Source: Croceibacterium sp.
GTDB lineage: Bacteria; Pseudomonadota; Alphaproteobacteria; Sphingomonadales; Sphingomonadaceae
DNA: 64,000 bases
NCBI GenBank assembly: GCA_039920725.1
Contig: JBDSDC010000145.1
Location: 14,080-78,079, forward strand
Reading direction: 5' to 3'
Made by a program: the position numbers and the translations under genes. Position 1 is the first letter of the stretch, and every line of letters starts with the position of its first letter. Below are positions 2,394 through 48,880 of the stretch, one piece after another. The notes below the pieces were generated by a model. The model made no database searches. It was not told the origin of the DNA and saw only the letters and a program-made list of their open reading frames with translations.

Positions 2394-2932
2394 TCTGGGC
2401 TCTCTTCGGCGGTTTCGAACAGCGCCTCGTCTTCGGCCCGCTCCTGATCGGCAGTTGCGGGCGGGTGGTGGGGACGGCCCGCGGCATTCGTCGCGCGCTC
2501 GGCCCGGCGGTCGAACGGCTTCTTGAGCTCGTCGAGAATGACCGCGAGCGCGGGCTCGACATCGGTCAGCAGCTGTTCCGCCGCAAACCGCAGCACGCGG
2601 ATGCCGACCGCGGCCAGCTTCTTGTCCTGAATCGCGTCGACCTCGGCATTCGTCTTTTCTGCAATCTCCACCACCAGCCAGCGCGCCGGACAGGCGAAAT
2701 CGACGATCGTCGAGCCGACCACGACCTGGCGGTGGAACTTGAACCCGCCGAGTTGTTGGTTTGCGAGCCGCGCCCAGAGCGCCTTTTCAGCTTCGGTCGG
2801 ATTGCGCCGTTTGGCCCTCGCCATCTCCTTGAGCCGCTCGACCCGGGTTTCCGACACGTTCCAGCTATGCCGAGGCGCGGCGTCCTGCCGCTCCGCCGGC
2901 GCGCGCAGGGAAAGGGTGCGGCGTTCACTCAT
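2390..2932 (-). CDS. DUF559/Vsr-like endonuclease-domain protein, apparently degenerate
   Basis: [13 protein letters not shown]...[14 protein letters not shown]...LVVEI...G.RVLRF pattern; ATGA overlaps with sufB and sufC. Confidence 0.8.
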
Positions 2933-4425
2933 CCGACGGAACCTTCAAGACTGATACCGAGCAGCTTCTGCGCCTCGACCGCGAATTCCATCGGCAGCTG
3001 CTTGAGCACTTCGCGGGCGAAGCCGTTGACGATCAGCGAAACCGATTCCTCTTGCGAAAGCCCGCGCTGCATCGCGTAGAACAGCTGGTCGTCGGAAATC
3101 TTGCTGGTGGTCGCTTCGTGCTCGATCTGCGCGGTCGGGTTCTTGACCTCGATGTAAGGCACGGTGTGCGCGCCGCATTCGGGCCCGAGCAGCAGGCTGT
3201 CGCACTGGGTGAAGTTGCGGACATTGTCGGCATTGGCCCCGACGCGAACCAGCCCGCGGTAAGTGTTGCTCGATTTGCCCGCGCTGATGCCCTTGGAGAT
3301 GATCGTGCTGCGGCTGCCCCGCCCATTGTGGATCATCTTGGTGCCGGTATCGGCCTGCTGGTAATTGTTGGTCACCGCGACCGAATAGAATTCGCCGACC
3401 GAATCCTCCCCGTTGAGTACGCAGCTGGGATATTTCCAGGTCACCGCGCTGCCGGTCTCGACCTGGGTCCAGCTGACTTTGCTGCGCTTGCCCTGGCACA
3501 GCGCGCGCTTGGTGACGAAATTGTAGATCCCGCCCAGCCCTTCGGCGTTGCCCGGGTACCAGTTCTGCACCGTCGAGTACTTGATCTCGGCATCGTCCAG
3601 CGCGATCAGCTCGACCACCGCCGCGTGGAGCTGGTTTTCGTCACGCATAGGCGCGGTGCAGCCTTCGAGGTAGCTGACGTAGCTGCCCTTCTCGGCGATG
3701 ATCAGCGTGCGTTCGAACTGGCCGGTGTTCTCGGCGTTGATGCGGAAATAAGTGCTCAGCTCCATCGGGCAGCGTACGCCCTCAGGGATGTACACAAAGG
3801 TCCCATCGGAGAACACAGCGCTGTTGAGCGTGGCGAAGAAGTTGTCGTGCTGCGGTACTACCCGGCCGAGCCACTTTTTCACTAGCTCGGGATATTCGCG
3901 GATCGCTTCGCTGATCGACAGGAAGAGCACGCCGGCCCGCTTCAGCTCCTCGCGGAAGGTTGTCGCCACCGACACGCTGTCGAACACCGCATCGACCGCC
4001 ACCTTGCGCGCGCCTTCGACGCCGGCGAGAACTTTCTGCTCCTCCAGCGGAATGCCGAGCTTCTTGTAAACCTCGAGGATGTCGGGATCGACCTCGTCGA
4101 GGCTGGCGAGCTTCGGCTTGGCCGTGGGCGCGGCGTAGTAATAAGCGTCCTGGTAATCGATCGGCGGCACGTTGAGCTTGGCCCAATCGGGCGCGGTCAT
4201 CGTCTGCCACAGGCGGAACGCCTTGAGCCGCCAGTCGAGCATCCATTCGGGCTCGCTCTTCTTGGCGCTGATGAAGCGGACGGTGTCCTCATTCAGCCCC
4301 TTGGGCGCGAATTCGGTGGCGATGTCGGCCGACCAGCCGTGCTCGTAGTCCGCCGCTTTCGCGGCCGCCTCGCGCGCGCCCTGATCGCGTTCCGGGCGGC
4401 CCTGGATGTCGACGTCGTCGGTCAT
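2929..4425 (-). CDS. sufB: Fe-S cluster assembly protein SufB
   Basis: [45 protein letters not shown]; start set at ATG 4425, which overlaps the regulator stop. Confidence 0.97.
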
Positions 4426-4838
4426 ACGGTGAGCTCGGGCTGGGTAAGCCGGGTTAACGGGACATCTGCGAGTGCGCCGCGCAGGGCCTTGTTGACGATG
4501 CCCCAGTGCGGACGGACGCTGCAGCATGCCTCGAGCCCGCAATCGTGCCGGCCATGCTCGACGCACGAGGTCAGCACGATCGGGCCCTCGACTGCCTCGA
4601 CGATGTCCGCCAGCGTAATCGCCGCCGCCGGACGCGCCAGCTTGAGGCCGCCGCCCGCGCCGCGCGAAGAACGCAGCAGGCCCGCTTTGCTGAGCAGGCT
4701 TACCAGCTTCTGCACTGTCGGCGCGGGCAACCCGGTTTCCGCCGCCAATTGCGCCGCGGACACGCGCGCGCCGCCGCAGTGGCGCGCGGCGGCGGTCATC
4801 GTCACAACGGCATAGTCGGCAAGGTTGGAGAGGCGCAT
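4422..4838 (-). CDS. Rrf2-family SUF system regulator
   Basis: [11 protein letters not shown]; [11 protein letters not shown]...[13 protein letters not shown]; C-x6-C-x4-CC cluster cysteines. Confidence 0.92.
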
Positions 4839-17436: not shown

Positions 17437-18294
17437 TCAATGCACCGGCGGGTCGGTGCGCGGGACCTGATTGACGGGGGCTACGGGCTGCCCCGGTTCG
17501 CGCGGGGGAAGCGCGTTTTCGGGCACATCGTCGATTTGCATGTCGGAGGTGTCGACATCCTGCAGATTGCGCGCCTCGACCGCCAAGGTCGTCCCGTCCC
17601 ATCGCAGCGCGTTGAAGCTCGGCGGGGTCGAGCGGAGTCGCTGCGAGAGCGTGCCCGCGCCGATCATCCGCACCGGCCCTGCCTCGGTCTGCTCGATGAG
17701 ATCAAACGGATCGTGCACGTGCCCGCTCAGCACCGCCAGCACCGCCGGGCGCCGGGCCAGCTCGGTGAGCGCGCGCTGGCCGCCGTGAGTCAGCGCGGTC
17801 CCCATCGTGCCCACCTCGCGCAAGGGGTGATGAACAGCCACGAGCGCGCGCGTGCCGGCCGGCAGCGCGTCGATTGCCGCCAGGCACTTGCCCAGCGCGG
17901 CCCCGGTCACCCAGCCCTTCGACCAGTTGAAGCGCGGTTGCATCCGCACCGTGGTCTTGAGCGGAACAATGGCCAGGCCGGGCACCGCCAGTTCGCGCTC
18001 GAGCACATGCTCGATGGCGCGGAACCGGCCGTATGGGCGCAAGAAGCGCTCGAACAGGTTGAAGTACGGCAAGTCGTGATTGCCGGCCTCGACGGTGACC
18101 GGCACCTCGAGCGCGCGGACCCACCGGCACGCGGCGGTGAATTCGCGGCGGCGCGCGCGCATGGTCATGTCGCCGGTGATGGCCACGGCGGCCGGCTGCT
18201 GTTCGGCAATCTCCTGCTTGACCCAGTCGAGCGCGCGATTGTTCTCGAGCCCGAAGTGAATGTCGCTGAGGTGGAACAAGAGCGTCTCGGCCAT
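17437..18294 (-). CDS. Metallophosphoesterase (calcineurin-like)
   Basis: SDIHFG, TGD, GNHD, HHP, GHVH. Confidence 0.9.
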   Translation of the reverse strand: MAETLLFHLSDIHFGLENNRALDWVKQEIAEQQPAAVAITGDMTMRARRREFTAACRWVRALEVPVTVEAGNHDLPYFNLFERFLRPYGRFRAIEHVLERELAVPGLAIVPLKTTVRMQPRFNWSKGWVTGAALGKCLAAIDALPAGTRALVAVHHPLREVGTMGTALTHGGQRALTELARRPAVLAVLSGHVHDPFDLIEQTEAGPVRMIGAGTLSQRLRSTPPSFNALRWDGTTLAVEARNLQDVDTSDMQIDDVPENALPPREPGQPVAPVNQVPRTDPPVH

Positions 18295-19139
18295 TACGCG
18301 GTCGCTAGCAGATCGACCTCGGACCGCACTAGTGTGAACTCTTCCTCGGCCCCGCATTCGGACTGTTCGCCATCGATCAACAAACCGAACGCACTGCCCC
18401 CGGTGCTGGCCAGGCGCACGCGAGTGGGCGTGCCGAGACGGTCGTGCGGCCCCTGGCGGAAATCGCGCTTGGCCAGCGCCCAGGCCTGGTCGAGATAATC
18501 CTTAGCCGTGGTGGCGGCGTAAGCGTCGATTTCAATTCCTACGTCGGTCGGGGTCAGGTTGATCAGCGGATAGCCCTCGTCGTTGCCGACTTTGGGCTCG
18601 AGGCAGGCAATCTGCTTCCCGGTCAACGTTTCCTGAATGGCGTTGATCGCGGTCCCCGCCATCTCCAGCGCGGCCTGATCTCGCATCGCCTCGCGAACGC
18701 TGCCCCAGCTGGCACCCGGACCCGCCAGCACGCCCGCGAGCGCATCGCCATGGCGCGATCGGATTATGCCGGGGCGATGTCGTCGGGCATCGCCGTCGGC
18801 CAGCGCCGCAATCACCTCGTCCAGCGAGCGTTCGCCGTGGAGCCGGTGATAGAGCAGGTTCATCGTACCGCCCGCGAGGACCAGCACGGCACCGCTCCAC
18901 CCGGCCAGCGTCCCGATCAGGGCATTGACGGTGCCATCGCCGGCAAACACCGCCAGGCACTCGATCACGGCTGCGTCGAGGATCGCCGGGGTCGGCAAGT
19001 CCTGCTCGGGGAAAACCGTGCGGTGCGCGATCCGGAACCCGTGGCTGCCTAAGCATTGGTCGAGCTCTTCCAGCGCCTTGCCGTCGTTGCTCCCGCTGGC
19101 CGCATTGTTGACCAGCCAAATCGATCGCGCTCCGTCCAT
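18294..19139 (-). CDS. Diacylglycerol/lipid kinase family protein
   Basis: N.ASG, AGDGTVN, GGTMN, IDGE. Confidence 0.85.
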   Translation of the reverse strand: MDGARSIWLVNNAASGSNDGKALEELDQCLGSHGFRIAHRTVFPEQDLPTPAILDAAVIECLAVFAGDGTVNALIGTLAGWSGAVLVLAGGTMNLLYHRLHGERSLDEVIAALADGDARRHRPGIIRSRHGDALAGVLAGPGASWGSVREAMRDQAALEMAGTAINAIQETLTGKQIACLEPKVGNDEGYPLINLTPTDVGIEIDAYAATTAKDYLDQAWALAKRDFRQGPHDRLGTPTRVRLASTGGSAFGLLIDGEQSECGAEEEFTLVRSEVDLLATA

Positions 19140-19209
19140 TGGCGACTAGCGAATGCCGCACCGCAAGGTTCCCGGTATTGCCTTCCGGTCGCGCCGCCGG
19201 CCGCCAAAC

Positions 19210-19285
19210 GCGCTTCGCCGGTTGCGGTGGGCGGTTTGTCGGACCGCCCCGCCGCCGGTCGAACACTGCGCGGACGTGGTCGAAG
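19210..19285 (+). promoter_or_regulatory. Two pairs of LytTR-type direct repeats (21-bp period)
   Basis: CGCTTCGCCGG/CGGTTTGTCGG (cores 19217, 19238) and CGCCGGTCGAA/ACGTGGTCGAA (cores 19258, 19279). Confidence 0.6.
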
Positions 19286-19384
19286 GGGCCAAGCGGGGCC
19301 GGCTTGGACGGCCTATTCCTCTCCTTGGGCGACGGACCATCCTCCGGACACCCAGGCCGGAGCACCGCCGCAATAAGGAGCAAG

Positions 19385-19681
19385 ATGATGACAACCCGTT
19401 TCGCAATTCTGGCCGCCGTGGGTGCGACGACGCTCGCCGGCCCCGCGCTGGCCGGCACCGCCATCAACTATGCCGACCTCAATCTGGAAACCGCTCAAGG
19501 CCAAGCCCAGCTCGACCGCCGCATCGACGGCGCCGCGCGCGCGATTTGCGGGATTGCGGACGTGCGCACCGGCACGCTTCTGCAGGGCACCAAGAACATC
19601 CAGTGCTACGACGCCGCCAAGGCGAGTGCCCGCAAGCAAGTGGCCGAGCGCGTTGCGCGCGGCCGCGCCCAGGGCGGCTGA
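19385..19681 (+). CDS. UrcA-family small secreted protein
   Basis: AAGGAG SD; signal peptide ending ALA; YADLNL...G...L.RRI..AA..IC...C...A pattern. Confidence 0.85.
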   Translation: MMTTRFAILAAVGATTLAGPALAGTAINYADLNLETAQGQAQLDRRIDGAARAICGIADVRTGTLLQGTKNIQCYDAAKASARKQVAERVARGRAQGG

Positions 19682-19711
19682 CAAGCTACCGGTTGCAGTC
19701 CGGTACAACTC

Positions 19712-19741
19712 GGGCGTCCGTTCGCGGACGCCCCCTTTTTG
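19712..19741 (+). terminator. Intrinsic terminator after the UrcA-family gene
   Basis: GGGCGTCCG-TTCG-CGGACGCCC-CC-TTTTT. Confidence 0.85.
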
Positions 19742-20479
19742 TCAGCGCCCCGCCATCGCTTTGACCTTGCGCAAGTAGGTACGGCCGATCCGCACGGCCT
19801 CGCCGTCGTCGAGCTCGGCCGACCACACGCCCAGCCCTTCGTGCCTCAGACCTCTGACGCGGTCCCGCCGCAGAATCGTCGAGCGATGGACGCGAATGAA
19901 GCGCGCCGGATCGAGCCGGTCCTCGAGCCCGGCGATCGTCTGCAGCATCAGGTAGCTGCGCTCTCCGACGTGCAGCCGGACGTAGTCGCGTTCGGCGTCG
20001 ATGCGGCTGACTTGCTCGGCATCGACCCGCACCAATTCCGAGCGGTGCGGCACCCAGAATTCGCTCAGCCACCGGCGGTCCGGCAAAAGCGCGCTCGTGC
20101 GCCGGCCAACGGCGCGGTCGATGGCCCGCGCCAGACGGTCGGCAGCGACCGGTTTGAGCACGTAGTCGACCGCTTCGAGATCGAACGCCGCGACCGCGAA
20201 ATCCTCGTGCGCGGTAACGAAGATCACTGCCGGTACAGCGGGTTTGCGCGCGAGCTGGCGGGCCACGTCCAATCCATCGATGCCGGGCATCGTCATGTCG
20301 AGCAACAGCAGCTCGGGCGTGAGCTTTTCGGCCAGCCGCAAGGCCGCCTCGCCGTCGCTGGCGGTGCCGATCACCGACACCTGAGGCAGTTCCGCGCACA
20401 GCACCTGCATGCGTTCGATCGCCAGCGGTTCGTCGTCGACAATCAGGGTGCGCAGGGCGTCGTCGTGCTTGACCATCAT
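19742..20479 (-). CDS. LytTR-family (AlgR/AgrA-like) response regulator
   Basis: IVDDEPLA, LLLDMTMP, IFVTAH, DYVLKP receiver; C-terminal AERDYV, FIRVHRS, IGRTY LytTR domain. Confidence 0.95.
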   Translation of the reverse strand: MMVKHDDALRTLIVDDEPLAIERMQVLCAELPQVSVIGTASDGEAALRLAEKLTPELLLLDMTMPGIDGLDVARQLARKPAVPAVIFVTAHEDFAVAAFDLEAVDYVLKPVAADRLARAIDRAVGRRTSALLPDRRWLSEFWVPHRSELVRVDAEQVSRIDAERDYVRLHVGERSYLMLQTIAGLEDRLDPARFIRVHRSTILRRDRVRGLRHEGLGVWSAELDDGEAVRIGRTYLRKVKAMAGR

Positions 20480-21684
20480 GTCCGCGCCTCACCGCCAGTC
20501 AGGATCGGCAGCCGCAGGACCGTTGCATAGCCGTGCACGGCCCGGCCGGAGACCACGTTTGCGTCGGTCCCGAAGCGCGCTTCGAGCCGCTCGCGCACGT
20601 TGGCGAGGCCGATGCCGAAGCCCGGCTGCGCCGGCTCGCGCGCCGCCTGGGCGCCGTCGTCGGATACCGTCAGGACCAGCCGGCCATATTCGATTCGCGC
20701 GGCCAGCGTGATGGTCACGCGATCGGCGGTTGGCGCAACCGCGTGCCGGACCGAATTTTCGACCAGCGGCTGGAGGATCATGCCGGGGATTTGCAGATCG
20801 GCGAGATCGGCGGGCAGTTCGTAGAGAACGCGCAGCCGCTCCGGGAAACGCACCGCCTCGATGTCGAGGTATAGCCGCTGCAGCGCAAACTCCTCCCGCA
20901 GCGGCACGTCGCTGGTGGGATCGTCGGCCAGGCTGCGGCGGTAGAAGGTCGAGAGCATCTGGATCATCCGCTCGGCGGTCTCGGTCTGGCCCGTCAGCAC
21001 CAGCGCGGACAGCGAATTGAGCGTGTTGAACAGGAAATGTGGATTGACCTGGTAACGCAAGCTGCGCAGCTCGGCCGCCTTGGCCGCGCGGCGGAACGCG
21101 CCTTCCCGCCGCTCGGCGCCGCGGGCCGCTTCGCCGGTCAGCAGCGCCAGATACAGCGCGCACCAGGCGAGCATCATGAAGTAGCGCCCGAAGGCCACCT
21201 CGGTCACGTCCTGCCAGGCGCTGGCGAGGACCGGCGAGCGCTCGGCGATCGCCTGGCCGCGGGCGCCGTGCACATCGACCGACATGTCGCCGAGCAAGTC
21301 GCCGCCGTCGCCCGCGGCGCCCCCCGCCTGGCGGGTTTCTATCCGCTTGAGCACGGCCGCCTGCATGTCGGCGAAGATCTGCTGGTTGGCTTGCGCCAGA
21401 ACCAGCGCAACCGGCGCCGACAGCAGCAGCGCGGCGGAAATCTTGGCCCACAGCGGCCGCGCGTCGAACAGCCGCAGCACCAGCCACAGCGCCAGCGTGA
21501 TCACGATCCCCGCCAGCGAAACGAGCGCGCGCGGCCACAGCAACTCGAACGACGACCCTAGCCCGTAGAATTGCCAGCGCAGCGTGGTGAGCGCGAAATA
21601 GCACAGCCACAGCCCGGCGATCGACGCCAGCACCGTGACGAAGGGGACGCGCGCGGGAACGGTTTCGCGGGGCTCGCTCTCCAT
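20476..21684 (-). CDS. LytS/AlgZ-family sensor histidine kinase
   Basis: About four TM segments; AELRSLRYQVNPHFLFNTLN; LQPLVENSVRH; GIGLANVRERL; likely start ATG 21684. Confidence 0.95.
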   Translation of the reverse strand: MESEPRETVPARVPFVTVLASIAGLWLCYFALTTLRWQFYGLGSSFELLWPRALVSLAGIVITLALWLVLRLFDARPLWAKISAALLLSAPVALVLAQANQQIFADMQAAVLKRIETRQAGGAAGDGGDLLGDMSVDVHGARGQAIAERSPVLASAWQDVTEVAFGRYFMMLAWCALYLALLTGEAARGAERREGAFRRAAKAAELRSLRYQVNPHFLFNTLNSLSALVLTGQTETAERMIQMLSTFYRRSLADDPTSDVPLREEFALQRLYLDIEAVRFPERLRVLYELPADLADLQIPGMILQPLVENSVRHAVAPTADRVTITLAARIEYGRLVLTVSDDGAQAAREPAQPGFGIGLANVRERLEARFGTDANVVSGRAVHGYATVLRLPILTGGEART

Positions 21685-21691
21685 GAACCTT

Positions 21692-21756
21692 GGTGTAGCG
21701 CTTGTGTAACGCACCCGGCCAGCCCTGCGGTCGTTTCCCGTTGTGCGTTGGTCGAT
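21692..21756 (-). promoter_or_regulatory. Kinase promoter: -10 TACACC plus 21-bp-period repeats
   Basis: Plus-strand CTGCGGTCGTT (core 21730) and CGTTGGTCGAT (core 21751). Confidence 0.55.
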
Positions 21757-23288
21757 CAGCGGTTGGCGGCCGCTAGCAGGCCGTCACGGGCGATTTTCTC
21801 GCGCCACTCTATCGGGGCCAAAGTGTGGACGTTGTTTCCTTCGCTATCGACCGCCACGGTGACCGGCATGTCCTGCACGGTGAATTCGTAGATCGCCTCC
21901 ATACCGAGGTCTTCGAAACCGACGACCCGCGCCTGCTTGATCGCCCGCGCGACCAGGTACGCCGCGCCGCCCACCGCCATCAGGTAGGCGACCTTGTGCC
22001 GGGCGATTTCCTCCACCGCGCCCTGCCCGCGCTCGGCCTTGCCGATCATTGCCAGCAGGCCGAGGCCCAGCATCATGTCGGTGAACTTGTCCATCCGCGT
22101 GGCCGTGGTCGGGCCCGCCGGGCCCACGACTTCGCCCATCACCGGGTCGACCGGGCCGACGTAATAGATCGCCCGGCCCGCAAAGCTGACCGGCAGCGAT
22201 TCGCCGTTGGCCTGCATCTCCTGAATGCGCTTGTGCGCGGCATCGCGCCCGGTCAGCATGGTGCCGCTCAGCAGCAAGCGGTCGCCGGCGGCCCACCCGC
22301 GCACCTCCTCTGCGGTCAGCTTGTCGAGGTCGACCCGCTTGGCGGCCACGTCGGGCTGCCAGTCGACCGCCGGCCATTTGGTCAGGTCGGGCACCGGCAG
22401 ATAGGCAGGGCCCGAACCGTCGAGGGTGACGTGCGCGTGGCGCGTGGCGGCGCAATTTGGGATCATCGCCACCGGCTTGCCCGCGGCATGGCACGGCCAG
22501 TCGAGAATCTTGACGTCGAGCACGGTCGCCAGCCCGCCCAGCCCCTGCGCGCCGATCCCGAGCGCGTTGACCTTGTCGAAGATCTCGATCCGCAGCCGCT
22601 CGATATCGGTCTGCGCGCCGCGGGCCTTCAACCGGGCCATGTCGATCGGCTCCATCAGCGATTGCTTGGCCAGCTTCATGCAATGCTCGGCCGTTCCGCC
22701 GATGCCGATCCCGAGCATCCCCGGCGGGCACCACCCAGCGCCCATCTGGGGCAGCATCTCGAGCACCCAGTCCACAATGCTGTCGCTGGGGTTCATCATC
22801 TTGAACTTGGACTTGTTCTCGCTGCCCCCGCCCTTGGCCGCGACGTCGAGCGACACCGTGCCCCCCGGCACCATCTCCGCCGACAACACGCACGGGGTAT
22901 TGTCGCGCGTGTTGCGGCGCGTGAACGCCGGGTCGGCCAGGATCGAGGCCCGCAAGCGGTTCTCAGGATGATTATAGGCCCGCCGGACACCTTCATCGAC
23001 CACGTCCTGCAGCGAGCGGGCCGATTCCAGCCGGCAATCCTGGCCCCATTTGACGAACACGTTGACGATCCCGGTGTCCTGGCAAATCGGCCGGTGCCCT
23101 TCGGCGCACATCCGGCTGTTGGTCAGGATCTGGGCGATCGCGTCCTTAGCCGCCGGACCCTGCTCGGCCGCGTAAGCCGCGCCCAATGCCTCAATGTAGT
23201 CGAGCGGGTGGTAGTACGAGATGTATTGCAGCGCGTCGGCCACGGTTTCGATCAGGTCGGCTTCGCGGATCATGACCATGGCGGACAT
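21756..23288 (-). CDS. Class I fumarate hydratase
   Basis: RPICQDTG, KGGGSENKS, GWCPPG, NCAATRH, TGRDAAH, GPTTATRM. Confidence 0.95.
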   Translation of the reverse strand: MSAMVMIREADLIETVADALQYISYYHPLDYIEALGAAYAAEQGPAAKDAIAQILTNSRMCAEGHRPICQDTGIVNVFVKWGQDCRLESARSLQDVVDEGVRRAYNHPENRLRASILADPAFTRRNTRDNTPCVLSAEMVPGGTVSLDVAAKGGGSENKSKFKMMNPSDSIVDWVLEMLPQMGAGWCPPGMLGIGIGGTAEHCMKLAKQSLMEPIDMARLKARGAQTDIERLRIEIFDKVNALGIGAQGLGGLATVLDVKILDWPCHAAGKPVAMIPNCAATRHAHVTLDGSGPAYLPVPDLTKWPAVDWQPDVAAKRVDLDKLTAEEVRGWAAGDRLLLSGTMLTGRDAAHKRIQEMQANGESLPVSFAGRAIYYVGPVDPVMGEVVGPAGPTTATRMDKFTDMMLGLGLLAMIGKAERGQGAVEEIARHKVAYLMAVGGAAYLVARAIKQARVVGFEDLGMEAIYEFTVQDMPVTVAVDSEGNNVHTLAPIEWREKIARDGLLAAANR

Positions 23289-46753: not shown

Positions 46754-47692
46754 ATGAGCGGCAAGCAAACCGAACGGCTGGCGGCGGACGCCGCGGGCCT
46801 CGCGCGCGCCGCGGAACTGTTGCGCGCGGGCGGCCTGGTCGCCCTGCCGACCGAGACGGTCTACGGCCTCGCCGCCCGGGCGGACTGCGAGCCGGCGGTC
46901 GCGGCGATCTTTCGCGCCAAGGGCCGGCCGGAGTTCAACCCGCTGATCGTGCATGTCGCCTCGCTGGCGATGGCCCGCAGCCTCGGGCACTTCGATGACC
47001 GCGCCGATCAATTGGCCAAGGCGTTCTGGCCCGGACCGCTCACCGTTGTGGTGCCGCTGGAGTCCGGCGCGGGCGTCGTGCCAGCGGTTACCGCGGGGCT
47101 GCCCACCATCGCGCTGCGATTGCCGGACCATCCACTGATGCGCGCCGTGCTGGGCGCTCTCGGCGTCCCGCTGGCAGCGCCCTCGGCCAATCGCAGCGGC
47201 GCGGTCAGCCCGACCACCGCCGAGCACGCCGCGCATTCACTCGCGGGGCGGATCGACGCGATCGTCGATGGCGGGCCTGCCGAGCGCGGGCTGGAATCGA
47301 CCATCGTCGCGGTGCGCGAAGGCGGCTGGCAAGTCCTGCGACCCGGGCCGATATCGCATGAACGGATTGCGCGCCTGCTCGGTCCGCCGCTGGCTGCCCG
47401 TTCGTCAGGAATCGAGGCGCCGGGTCAATTGGCGAGCCATTATTCGCCCGGCAAGCCGGTCCGGCTGGACGCACGCTCGGCTGAGGCGAACGAGTTCATG
47501 ATCGGGTTTGGCCCGGTGGAGGGGGATTGCAACCTCGCGCCCGACTCCGATCTCGCGCTGGCCGCGGCGCGCCTTTACGCGTGCCTCCACCAGGCCGCCG
47601 CGTCACCCAGGCCGCGGGTGGCGGTGGCCGCGATTCCCGCGCAGGGAATCGGCGCGGCGATCAACGACCGCCTGCGCCGCGCTGCCAGTTAG
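46754..47692 (+). CDS. tsaC: L-threonylcarbamoyladenylate synthase (Sua5 type)
   Basis: PTETVYGL; KGRP..NPLIVH; AAPSANRSG; APGQL.SHY; DRLRRA. Confidence 0.94.
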   Translation: MSGKQTERLAADAAGLARAAELLRAGGLVALPTETVYGLAARADCEPAVAAIFRAKGRPEFNPLIVHVASLAMARSLGHFDDRADQLAKAFWPGPLTVVVPLESGAGVVPAVTAGLPTIALRLPDHPLMRAVLGALGVPLAAPSANRSGAVSPTTAEHAAHSLAGRIDAIVDGGPAERGLESTIVAVREGGWQVLRPGPISHERIARLLGPPLAARSSGIEAPGQLASHYSPGKPVRLDARSAEANEFMIGFGPVEGDCNLAPDSDLALAAARLYACLHQAAASPRPRVAVAAIPAQGIGAAINDRLRRAAS

Positions 47693-48018
47693 CGTTTGGT
47701 GTCGGCCGGGACGGTCGGCAGCAGCTCGGCGATCTGGGCGGAGACCTTCTCGTCTTGCGTGCAGGCGTCGCGGTCGCCGCGCTGGCATTTGCGGGCGAGC
47801 TTGTCATGTTCGCGCTGCAGGCGGCCGATCTGCTCCTCGCGGCGGCGGACTTCGCGGCCCCGCTTCTGGTCGGCCTCGGCCTGGCTGGTGGTGGCGAGAT
47901 CGACCGCGCGACTGGCGACTTTGACCGGCAAGGTCACCACGTCGAGCGCGGTGTTAAGGAGGCAGCCGCTCAGCATGAGCGCGGCCGCCGGGGCAAGCAG
48001 AAGGGCAGGGCGCGGCAT
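47689..48018 (-). CDS. Small hypothetical lipoprotein
   Basis: LSGC lipobox; VDLATTSQ.E.D..RGR; C..GD..AC. Confidence 0.7.
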   Translation of the reverse strand: MPRPALLLAPAAALMLSGCLLNTALDVVTLPVKVASRAVDLATTSQAEADQKRGREVRRREEQIGRLQREHDKLARKCQRGDRDACTQDEKVSAQIAELLPTVPADTKR

Positions 48019-48080
48019 CGGTCGGCTCCTATTCGTCCCGCACCGCTGGCGCGCCGCCGGTGAGCCTTCGCTGAACGCGC

Positions 48081-48785
48081 TCAGGTCTCGGCCGGCGCCC
48101 GCTCGCACACCAGCGTGCCCGAGCCGATCGAGCTGACGCTGCAGCGGGCCGAGCCGCGCACGATCACGTTGCCCGATCCGAGCAAGCTGGCGGTCACTTC
48201 GCCATCGCAGGCGAAGATCGCATCGCCCGAGCCGGCGAGGTTGACGGTCGCGCCATGCACCATCAGGCCCTCGCCATCGCAGCTCCCGCTGCCGGCGATA
48301 GCCAGCTCGAGCGTGTCGGCGCGCCCGTCGAGCGTCAGGCGGCCGCTGCCGGCGATATGCACCGCCAGCCGTCCGCCGCCGACCGCACCGATCTCGAGCC
48401 GGCCGGATCCGGCCACCGACACTTCGCCATCGGGGGCGAGCGCCGCGCTTTCCATCCGCCCCGATCCGGTGACGGCCAGCGAAAGCGGAGCGGGCAGGGT
48501 GATCCGCACCCGGGTGCCGCCGTCGCCGCCGCTAAGGCCCAGTCTTCCGTCGGACAGCGCGAAGCGAAGGTCCTCGCGGCCGGGACCTTCGTCGACCTCG
48601 ATCAGGAAGTCGTCACCGACGTTCACCACCACATGCCCCGGCCCGGCCAGCGCCACGGCATGCGGCGCGGGGCCGGTCAAGTCGAGCTCGGCCAATGGGA
48701 CACCGGTCGCCGCGGCATCGCGCAAGTGAGTCGCGACATTGCCGGCGATGAAGCCCAAGTTCCTGAACAAGTCGTCAAATCGCAT
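48081..48785 (-). CDS. GIN-domain (DUF2807, beta-solenoid) protein
   Basis: About seven tandem x-x-GSG repeats with ~19-20 aa period; GGAGG SD. Confidence 0.85.
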   Translation of the reverse strand: MRFDDLFRNLGFIAGNVATHLRDAAATGVPLAELDLTGPAPHAVALAGPGHVVVNVGDDFLIEVDEGPGREDLRFALSDGRLGLSGGDGGTRVRITLPAPLSLAVTGSGRMESAALAPDGEVSVAGSGRLEIGAVGGGRLAVHIAGSGRLTLDGRADTLELAIAGSGSCDGEGLMVHGATVNLAGSGDAIFACDGEVTASLLGSGNVIVRGSARCSVSSIGSGTLVCERAPAET

Positions 48786-48802
48786 GGCACCCTCCGCTGC
48801 TC

Positions 48803-48822
48803 TGTACTAGCTCACTAATACA
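48803..48822. promoter_or_regulatory. Palindromic operator (GntR/YtrA-like)
   Basis: TGTACTAG-CTCA-CTAATACA (7/8 palindromic), AT-rich, overlapping the putative -10. Confidence 0.6.
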
Positions 48823-48844
48823 CGAGAGCGAGTGCGCGCTCAAT

Positions 48845-48880
48845 CGCCGCCGGTCGATCAAGCGCGCGCGTTGGCCGAAA
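48845..48880 (-). promoter_or_regulatory. LytTR-type direct repeat pair (21-bp period)
   Basis: CGCCGGTCGAT (core 48853) and CGTTGGCCGAA (core 48874). Confidence 0.55.

Follow-up and report, generated by a model that had tools for sequence, protein, structure and literature searches.

Gene content of the locus

The DNA analysed here is a 64,000-nt stretch of Croceibacterium sp. (the window, whose numbering is used throughout). It belongs to the metagenome-assembled genome (MAG; 1.93 Mb, 72% complete, 66% G+C) of an Erythrobacter-type soil sphingomonad, obtained from rhizosphere metagenome data. At 19210-21756, the window carries an operon for a PF06580-type histidine kinase and a LytTR-type response regulator, on which a gene of the UrcA family converges; short direct repeats (hereafter boxes) are found upstream of both urcA and the kinase gene. 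Comparison with orthologous loci indicates that these genes probably represent an AlgZ/AlgR-like, autoregulated two-component system controlling urcA, an unlinked gene with a DUF2807/GIN domain and, in relatives, a gene for an 88-amino-acid (aa) membrane protein. The features of the locus are listed in Table 1.

The assignment of both proteins to the LytTR-type two-component systems follows from profile searches: the regulator combines a receiver domain with a C-terminal LytTR DNA-binding domain, and the kinase contains the PF06580 phosphoacceptor domain together with HATPase_c. In NCBIfam, the regulator matches BtsR best, although the score of 125 bits is far under the cut-off of 246. A sequence search of the PDB returned receiver-domain matches only, and a search of 25 other genomes of the order gave no regulator match of E <= 1e-30 outside the family. 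These domain matches and the hairpin terminator predicted between the two convergent genes bear out the gene arrangement proposed in an earlier note on this DNA. No Rfam family matched within 18900-22000. A second, paralogous pair of PF06580 kinase and LytTR regulator genes (34-39% identity) is encoded outside the window, at 2948-4563 of the same contig (contig 145).

The kinase had been taken for LytS in the earlier note, which our analysis does not confirm. A 5TMR_LYT domain (PF07694) is absent, PF06580 and PF02518 being the only matches at E <= 0.01, and the hydrophobic segments at about residues 14-36, 49-73, 78-104 and 161-185 read as four transmembrane (TM) helices with a periplasmic loop of ~55 residues (~105-160) between the third and the fourth. 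Because it lacks 5TMR_LYT and has four helices with such a loop, the kinase resembles AlgZ/FimS rather than LytS proper; AlgZ has four TM helices as well (PMC4064291). Furthermore, no holin-like genes of the lrgAB/cidAB type are found nearby, the neighbours being the fumarase, urcA and lipid kinase genes. Among relatives, the TM helices are 60-71% identical and the juxtamembrane linker 78%, whereas the periplasmic loop is only 20% identical and contains indels. The far better conservation of helices and linker favours a signal that would be sensed within or at the membrane.

The closest named relatives belong to Alteraurantiacibacter, Croceibacterium, Altererythrobacter and Novosphingobium. 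Cultured strains with the locus occur in Croceibacterium, Altericroceibacterium and Novosphingobium as well as in Aurantiacibacter luteus. For comparison, 29 orthologous loci from relatives and 80 further named ones were used, i.e. ~100 loci of Erythrobacter-type and Novosphingobium sphingomonads. The gene order fumarase-kinase-regulator-urcA-(88-aa gene)-lipid kinase is kept in ~27/30 loci, and in ~49/80 of the larger set. Four DNA sequencing runs contain the locus, all of them from one rhizosphere metagenome study.

Table 1. Genes, promoter elements and boxes of the locus and of the distant GIN gene (scores in bits for boxes refer to the box matrix).
Feature	Position	Strand	Remarks
DAGK_cat-type lipid kinase gene	18294-19139	-	PF00781, E 8.5e-9; synteny; here adjoins the box array directly
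Box 1 remnant, TTCCGGTCG	19183-19191	+	-0.3 bits; shifted ~8 nt compared to relatives
Box 2, GCTTCGCCG	19212-19220	+	5.5 bits; counterpart of the -37 box at the promoter of the small gene that was lost here
Box 3, GGTTTGTCG	19233-19241	+	11.0 bits; 21 nt from box 2
Box 4, CGCCGGTCG	19253-19261	+	10.0 bits; urcA-distal, putatively activating; counterpart conserved in relatives
Box 5, ACGTGGTCG	19274-19282	+	0.9 bits; TCGA core at 19280, 32 nt before the -10 octamer
urcA -10 octamer, CCTATTCC	19312-19319	+	GCTATTCC in relatives; conserved column
urcA leader stem-loop	19327-19371	+	outer stem 19329-19335/19365-19371; inner stem 19341-19347/19357-19362; C-rich loop
urcA	19385-19681	+	TIGR04433, 66.1 bits (cut-off 25); 98 aa
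Hairpin terminator between urcA and regulator genes	19712-19733	+	predicted
Response regulator gene, REC and LytTR	19742-20479	-	PF00072, E 5.7e-26; PF04397, E 1.1e-17, 64.5 bits (cut-off 22.6)
Histidine kinase gene	20476-21684	-	His_kinase PF06580, 86 bits; HATPase_c PF02518, 35 bits
Kinase-operon -10 octamer, GCTACACC	21692-21699	-	7 nt before ATG; GCTAGA/GCTACA in relatives
Weak -35-like GCTGGC of the kinase promoter	21718-21723	-	conserved GCTGGCG column
Kinase-proximal box, CTGCGGTCG (minus-strand reading CGACCGCAG)	21725-21733	+	weak, -3.2 bits
Kinase-distal box, CGTTGGTCG	21746-21754	+	13.6 bits; abuts the fumarase stop codon
Class I fumarase gene	end at 21756		domain search; stop codon abuts the kinase-distal box
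DUF2807/GIN-domain gene, predicted regulon member	48081-48785	-	PF10988, 91 bits; 29 kb away
Two boxes, CGCCGGTCG (48848-48856) and CGTTGGCCG (48869-48877)	48848-48877	+	just upstream of the GIN promoter TTGAGC-N17-TATTAG

Boxes at the kinase, urcA and GIN promoters

Direct repeats with a spacing of about two helical turns are the binding sites of LytTR regulators. In the window, the pattern GGTCG-N16-GGTCG, with repeats exactly 21 bp apart, is found at 19257-19282 and 21729-21754, upstream of urcA and of the kinase gene, respectively. All boxes of these two promoters are on the + strand, so that their orientation relative to transcription is inverted at urcA compared to the kinase operon. Both the pairing at 21 bp and the opposite orientation had been described in the earlier note and hold, though the pair it cited at 19217/19238 is degenerate (GCTTCGCCG and GGTTTGTCG); the -10 elements it placed at 19314 and 21692-21697 are both conserved as octamers of the GCTAnnnC type. 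A scan of 19050-21850 for E. coli-type promoters found nothing, and the -35 region of urcA is poor; the window promoters presumably belong to the alphaproteobacterial GCTAnAwC type.

The bare pattern is not rare in this genome. Over 1.93 Mb, 102 matches were counted (154 for the reversed control), which is the argument for regarding the repeats as a chance product of G+C-rich sequence. Shuffling of the window gave 0.45 expected matches compared to the 4 seen, but this test overstates significance because the pattern is common genome-wide. Two GGTCG-N16-GGTCG pairs in inverted arrangement within the coding sequence of the regulator (20116-20171) were rejected as sites, as they score <5 bits on the box matrix; they look like codon-driven chance matches.

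The box matrix was trained on the 29 relatives, with the window left out, and comprises 134 sites, almost all of them on one strand. It has the form (C)CGTTCGTCG(A) and the consensus C-S-T-T-S-G-T-C-G, equal to the AlgR core CCGTTCGTC (PMC4064291); the AlgR site had been brought up in the earlier note as well. Three sites of at least 10 bits (19233, 19253, 21746) fall into the 316 nt of promoter DNA, against ~0.16 expected at the window-wide rate. In the orthologous loci, the boxes are ~12-fold denser in the urcA and kinase promoters than elsewhere: counted over 78 loci, the two promoter regions contain 9.5 and 10.8 sites of at least 8 bits per kb on their + strand, compared to 1.2 and 0.85 per kb on the opposite one and to 0.8-0.9 per kb in the remainder of the 463 kb of loci.

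Position is conserved as well. The alignment of the kinase upstream region from 29 genomes reads TTCGACCAAGG-N10-TCGAC(C/G)GC-GGGCTGGCG-N~17-GCTAGA/GCTACA, with the ATG ~10 nt further on and with diverged flanks; it delimits a pair of boxes with 21-bp spacing, a weak -35 region and a -10 element of the GCTAnnnC type, and the mRNA is probably leaderless. These boxes are present in essentially every orthologous locus. In the window, the kinase-proximal box lies 35 nt from the -10 element, as in relatives (counted at the T of the relatives' TCGA, the window having ACGA), and the kinase-operon mRNA is probably leaderless or nearly so. Upstream of urcA, relatives possess 3-5 phased boxes. Taken over the sites as a whole, the period is 19-22 nt (mostly 21), on a single strand only. 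The TCGA of box 5 is located 32 nt from the urcA -10 element in 27/30 loci, and the window fits this spacing (19280 and 19312). The spacing from box 4 to box 5 is 21 nt in 24/30 loci, and the intervening sequence does not align.

Furthermore, the matrix recovers an unlinked promoter. No GIN promoters were used for training, and in 16/18 orthologous GIN promoters a box of 8.5-15.6 bits occupies the same position, right before TTGAGC-N17-TATTAT; the boxes of the window GIN gene have the orientation of the kinase-promoter boxes. The GIN site was also recovered in a two-box scan of the own genome. Here, the higher-scoring matches inspected are all inside long open reading frames (ORFs), and of the remaining ones the urcA promoter comes first, with the GIN site among the best five. 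The gene calling in this genome is crude (based on ORFs and G+C at third codon positions (GC3), with only 68-78% coding), and the claimed regulon members therefore stop at the GIN gene. No boxes were found upstream of the genome's two urcA paralogues and of the second PF06580/LytTR pair.

Scanning of the own and related genomes with the two-box matrix, which had been proposed as a check of the idea, thus gave conserved boxes at the kinase, urcA and GIN promoters, and the repeats turned out to occupy fixed positions in the orthologous promoters of ~100 loci. Such position- and strand-specific conservation, together with the unlinked promoter, already contradicts a chance origin of the repeats, which we regard as extremely improbable.

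Another conceivable explanation is that the boxes are operators of another protein, e.g., of the paralogous LytTR regulator on the contig or of an unrelated factor. Indeed, the adjacent regulator was assigned as the binder from adjacency and family-typical geometry only, and a second PF06580/LytTR pair does exist at 2948-4563 of the contig. However, essentially every genome with the orthologous kinase operon has the boxes in front of it, the upstream region of the paralogue itself has none, and the module is missing where the paralogue alone has been kept. In addition, direct repeats with a 21-bp period and a CCGTTCGTC core are typical of LytTR/AlgR proteins. A different binder therefore appears very unlikely.

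The GIN locus has some further features. A conserved palindrome (TGTATTAT..TAATACA) covers the GIN -10 element in nearly all orthologues (window 48790-48880), which suggests that a second regulator may act at this promoter. An ORF of 139 aa with a lipoprotein-like signal (47689-48108, minus strand) follows the GIN gene with a 28-nt overlap and may be part of its transcription unit. Relatives carry two to four tandem GIN paralogues at this locus.

The 88-aa protein gene and UrcA

Most relatives possess a gene for an 88-aa membrane protein (65/80 loci; e.g., 2804-3067, plus strand, in the relative locus L020) for which no Pfam family was found. It occurs in two positions. In some relatives, it is transcribed divergently from the adjacent urcA and has the lipid kinase gene on its other side; in many Novosphingobium loci without urcA, it follows the regulator gene directly, with a gap of 17-90 nt and without boxes. 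The lipid kinase gene lies ~40-60 nt downstream of the 88-aa gene in relatives, and the two may share a transcript. Both urcA and the 88-aa gene are present in 46 of the 80 loci, whereas 19 have only the 88-aa gene, 3 only urcA and 12 neither (some of these on cut contigs), i.e. the 88-aa gene is a more constant partner of the kinase and regulator than urcA. The 88-aa gene is likewise missing from three genomes of the family that have no orthologous regulator, and in the two of them in which the fumarase gene was found, no module follows it.

The position of the boxes relative to the divergent 88-aa gene makes the arrangement in the window understandable. Two boxes are ~37 and ~58 nt from its ATG, which is close to the offsets of 34 and 55 at the kinase promoter, in the same orientation, and two others, at ~77 and ~97 nt, face urcA. 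In the window's MAG, a homologue of the 88-aa gene was found neither in the 72% of the genome available nor between 19140 and 19384, yet the genome keeps the five-box array and the lipid kinase gene. The first repeat pair of the earlier note is the former pair of the small gene, and the second one the urcA pair. The lipid kinase gene now starts 45 nt from box 1, with a -10-like octamer GCTAGTCG 5 nt before its ATG (19135-19225, minus strand). It may have inherited the regulated, leaderless promoter position of the small gene.

This raises the alternative that control by the regulator is limited to the kinase-regulator operon, the GIN gene and the divergent 88-aa gene together with the lipid kinase gene. 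In that case, urcA would be expressed independently next to the array, and the window boxes upstream of it would be relics or serve the lipid kinase gene. The intergenic boxes all share the orientation seen at the kinase, small-gene and GIN promoters, without a urcA-specific one; box 5 is the weakest, often lacks the TT and scores 0.9 bits in the window. Moreover, urcA is dispensable for the module, as 19/80 loci have the 88-aa gene without it. On the other hand, the distance of boxes 4 and 5 from the start of the small gene is 77-111 nt, which puts them beyond the box pair at ~37 and ~58, and such a pair is sufficient at the kinase and GIN promoters. Furthermore, the distance between box and urcA -10 element is fixed (32 nt, 27/30) across otherwise unalignable sequence. 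The array is also kept in three lineages without the 88-aa gene, including that of the window, and the poor -35 region of urcA is what would be expected for an activator-dependent promoter. We therefore consider independence of urcA rather unlikely and retain urcA as a putative target of the regulator.

UrcA itself has a signal-peptide-like N-terminus and two helices, with C55 and C74 invariant in 34 sequences. The AlphaFold2 model is a disulfide-stapled two-helix hairpin (pLDDT 75) that is uninformative as to role; no PDB sequence match and no Foldseek match with E < 2 were obtained. The signal peptide, the two invariant cysteines and the model are consistent with the earlier description of the output as a small, disulfide-bonded exported protein.

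It had further been suggested that exported UrcA acts back on the periplasmic loop of the kinase as a ligand or feedback inhibitor. Feedback of small proteins on kinases is known, e.g., for MgrB and PhoQ. UrcA is exported, small and disulfide-bonded, the kinase offers a periplasmic loop of ~55 residues, and UrcA and the loop both evolve fast. Nevertheless, no other part of the sensor is as poorly conserved as the loop (20% with indels, compared to 60-71% for the TM helices), urcA is missing from ~1/3 of the loci, and a semi-conserved motif of the loop is retained in 24/26 loci without urcA, as against 27/40 loci with urcA. The comparison thus gives no support to this suggestion, and a direct effect of UrcA on the loop seems quite doubtful.

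The leader of urcA begins with another conserved element, whose first base is the predicted transcription start. In 24 relatives, a 12-bp stem with 8 pairs showing compensatory changes encloses an invariant loop, CAGUCCC, and the stem starts 14 nt after the -10 element, a position conserved in 29/30 loci. In the window, the loop is ACACCCAGG rather than CAGUCCC and the fold alone is not significant (z -1.67), hence the hairpin rests on the alignment of relatives. A genome-wide search for hairpins with a CAGTCC loop revealed chance hairpins only.

Proposed circuit and related systems

In the circuit that we propose, the four-TM kinase would sense a signal, probably connected with the membrane or envelope, and phosphorylate the REC-LytTR regulator. 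The latter would then bind C-S-T-T-S-G-T-C-G boxes arranged as 9-bp direct repeats ~21 bp apart, which are located upstream of weak -35 regions, and most likely activate transcription. Its putative targets are the probably leaderless kinase-regulator operon itself (autoregulation), the convergent urcA, where the boxes are inverted, the DUF2807/GIN gene at a distance of 29 kb and, in relatives, the gene of the 88-aa membrane protein with that of the DAGK-type lipid kinase downstream. We infer from these data that the adjacent regulator is the box binder, that binding means activation and that the regulon has a role in the envelope, the last because its outputs comprise a lipid kinase and a DUF2807 protein along with one exported and one membrane protein. 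Autoregulation and control of urcA, as claimed in the earlier note, are supported by comparative genomics through the boxes at both promoters. As for its positive feedback loop, boxes that abut weak -35 regions suggest activation, but a positive sign of the regulation is putative.

Several observations weigh against this proposal. The boxes of urcA are oriented opposite to those of the three other promoters, with the box centre 3-4 bp further from the -10 element, and the promoter-proximal boxes of the window score very low (0.9 and -3.2 bits). At 66% G+C, the information content of the motif is small: the window contains 59 sites of at least 10 bits in total, and many matches in the two-box scan of the own genome are in coding sequences. 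The loci used for matrix training overlap with those used for the density counts, and the relatives are not independent; for this reason, the geometry of the boxes and the GIN promoter weigh more than their density. Finally, no RNA runs with the locus were listed among the sequencing runs searched. Taking these points together with the conservation described above, we still regard an autoregulated AlgZ/AlgR-like system that controls urcA and the GIN gene as the likely interpretation.

AlgZ (FimS)/AlgR of Pseudomonas aeruginosa is similar in features. Like the system described here, it consists of a PF06580-type kinase, which has four TM helices at its N-terminus but lacks a large periplasmic domain, and of a REC-LytTR regulator; the 9-bp core CCGTTCGTC of AlgR recurs in the present boxes. 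AlgR acts from sites in either orientation, and its RB3 site at algD, at about -45, is inverted (PMC4064291), which gives the inverted orientation of the boxes at urcA a precedent. However, the system proposed here is alphaproteobacterial, its boxes form tight 21-bp pairs abutting the -35 region rather than scattered enhancer-like sites, its operon would be autoregulated, and hemC, fimU or an alginate context are lacking; its putative target genes encode UrcA, a DUF2807 protein and a small membrane protein.

In AgrC/AgrA, ComD/ComE and other Gram-positive LytTR systems, 9-bp direct repeats ~21 bp apart are located beside the -35 region, and the systems are positively autoregulated. The geometry is thus the same as that of the boxes here, but genes for a peptide pheromone and its processing are absent from the locus, and the kinase is a four-TM PF06580 protein instead of an HPK10 kinase with 6-7 TM helices. 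BtsS/BtsR and YpdA/YpdB of E. coli as well as LytS/LytR share the catalytic family of the kinase, BtsR being the best, though subthreshold, match of the regulator; they differ in that the present kinase has no 5TMR_LYT or GAF sensor and the system no transporter or lrgAB target.

In Caulobacter crescentus, urcA is driven by the two-component system UzcRS (PMC8963506). An output gene of the UrcA family under a two-component system is common to both cases; nevertheless, the regulator here is of the LytTR and not the OmpR type, a response to metals is not implied, and a search of 19140-19384 for the UzcR-type site CATTAC-N6-TTAA (<=2 mismatches) in the urcA promoter gave no match.

Small membrane-protein partners of kinases are represented by MgrB (PhoQ) and SaeQ (SaeS). 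By analogy, the 88-aa gene of relatives, which either belongs to the kinase operon or has the boxes in its own promoter, would have the layout of a kinase modulator encoded in the regulon; it differs in being absent from the window genome, and its partner role is putative. A more far-reaching version would be a three- or four-part envelope signalling device in which the TM bundle of the kinase is tuned by the 88-aa protein or, where this has been lost, by exported UrcA, with the CAGUCCC loop as a second, post-transcriptional input. Such a device is speculative and, in our opinion, unlikely; if real, it would make UrcA-family proteins accessories of two-component kinases and not metal-handling proteins.

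The type of circuit proposed here is well known. What is new is the system itself, which has no prior description in the literature searched; no paper was found that joins LytTR regulators with urcA or with sphingomonads. The analysis provides a concrete predicted regulon for a two-component system that is conserved in a large group of environmental sphingomonads, consisting of a box matrix and four promoters with predicted -10 elements and transcription starts. If our interpretation is correct, the AlgR-type recognition core would be used well outside gammaproteobacteria. Moreover, a UrcA-family protein would be tied to a second, unrelated type of regulator, which argues for UrcA as a general output of envelope responses rather than a uranium-specific one.

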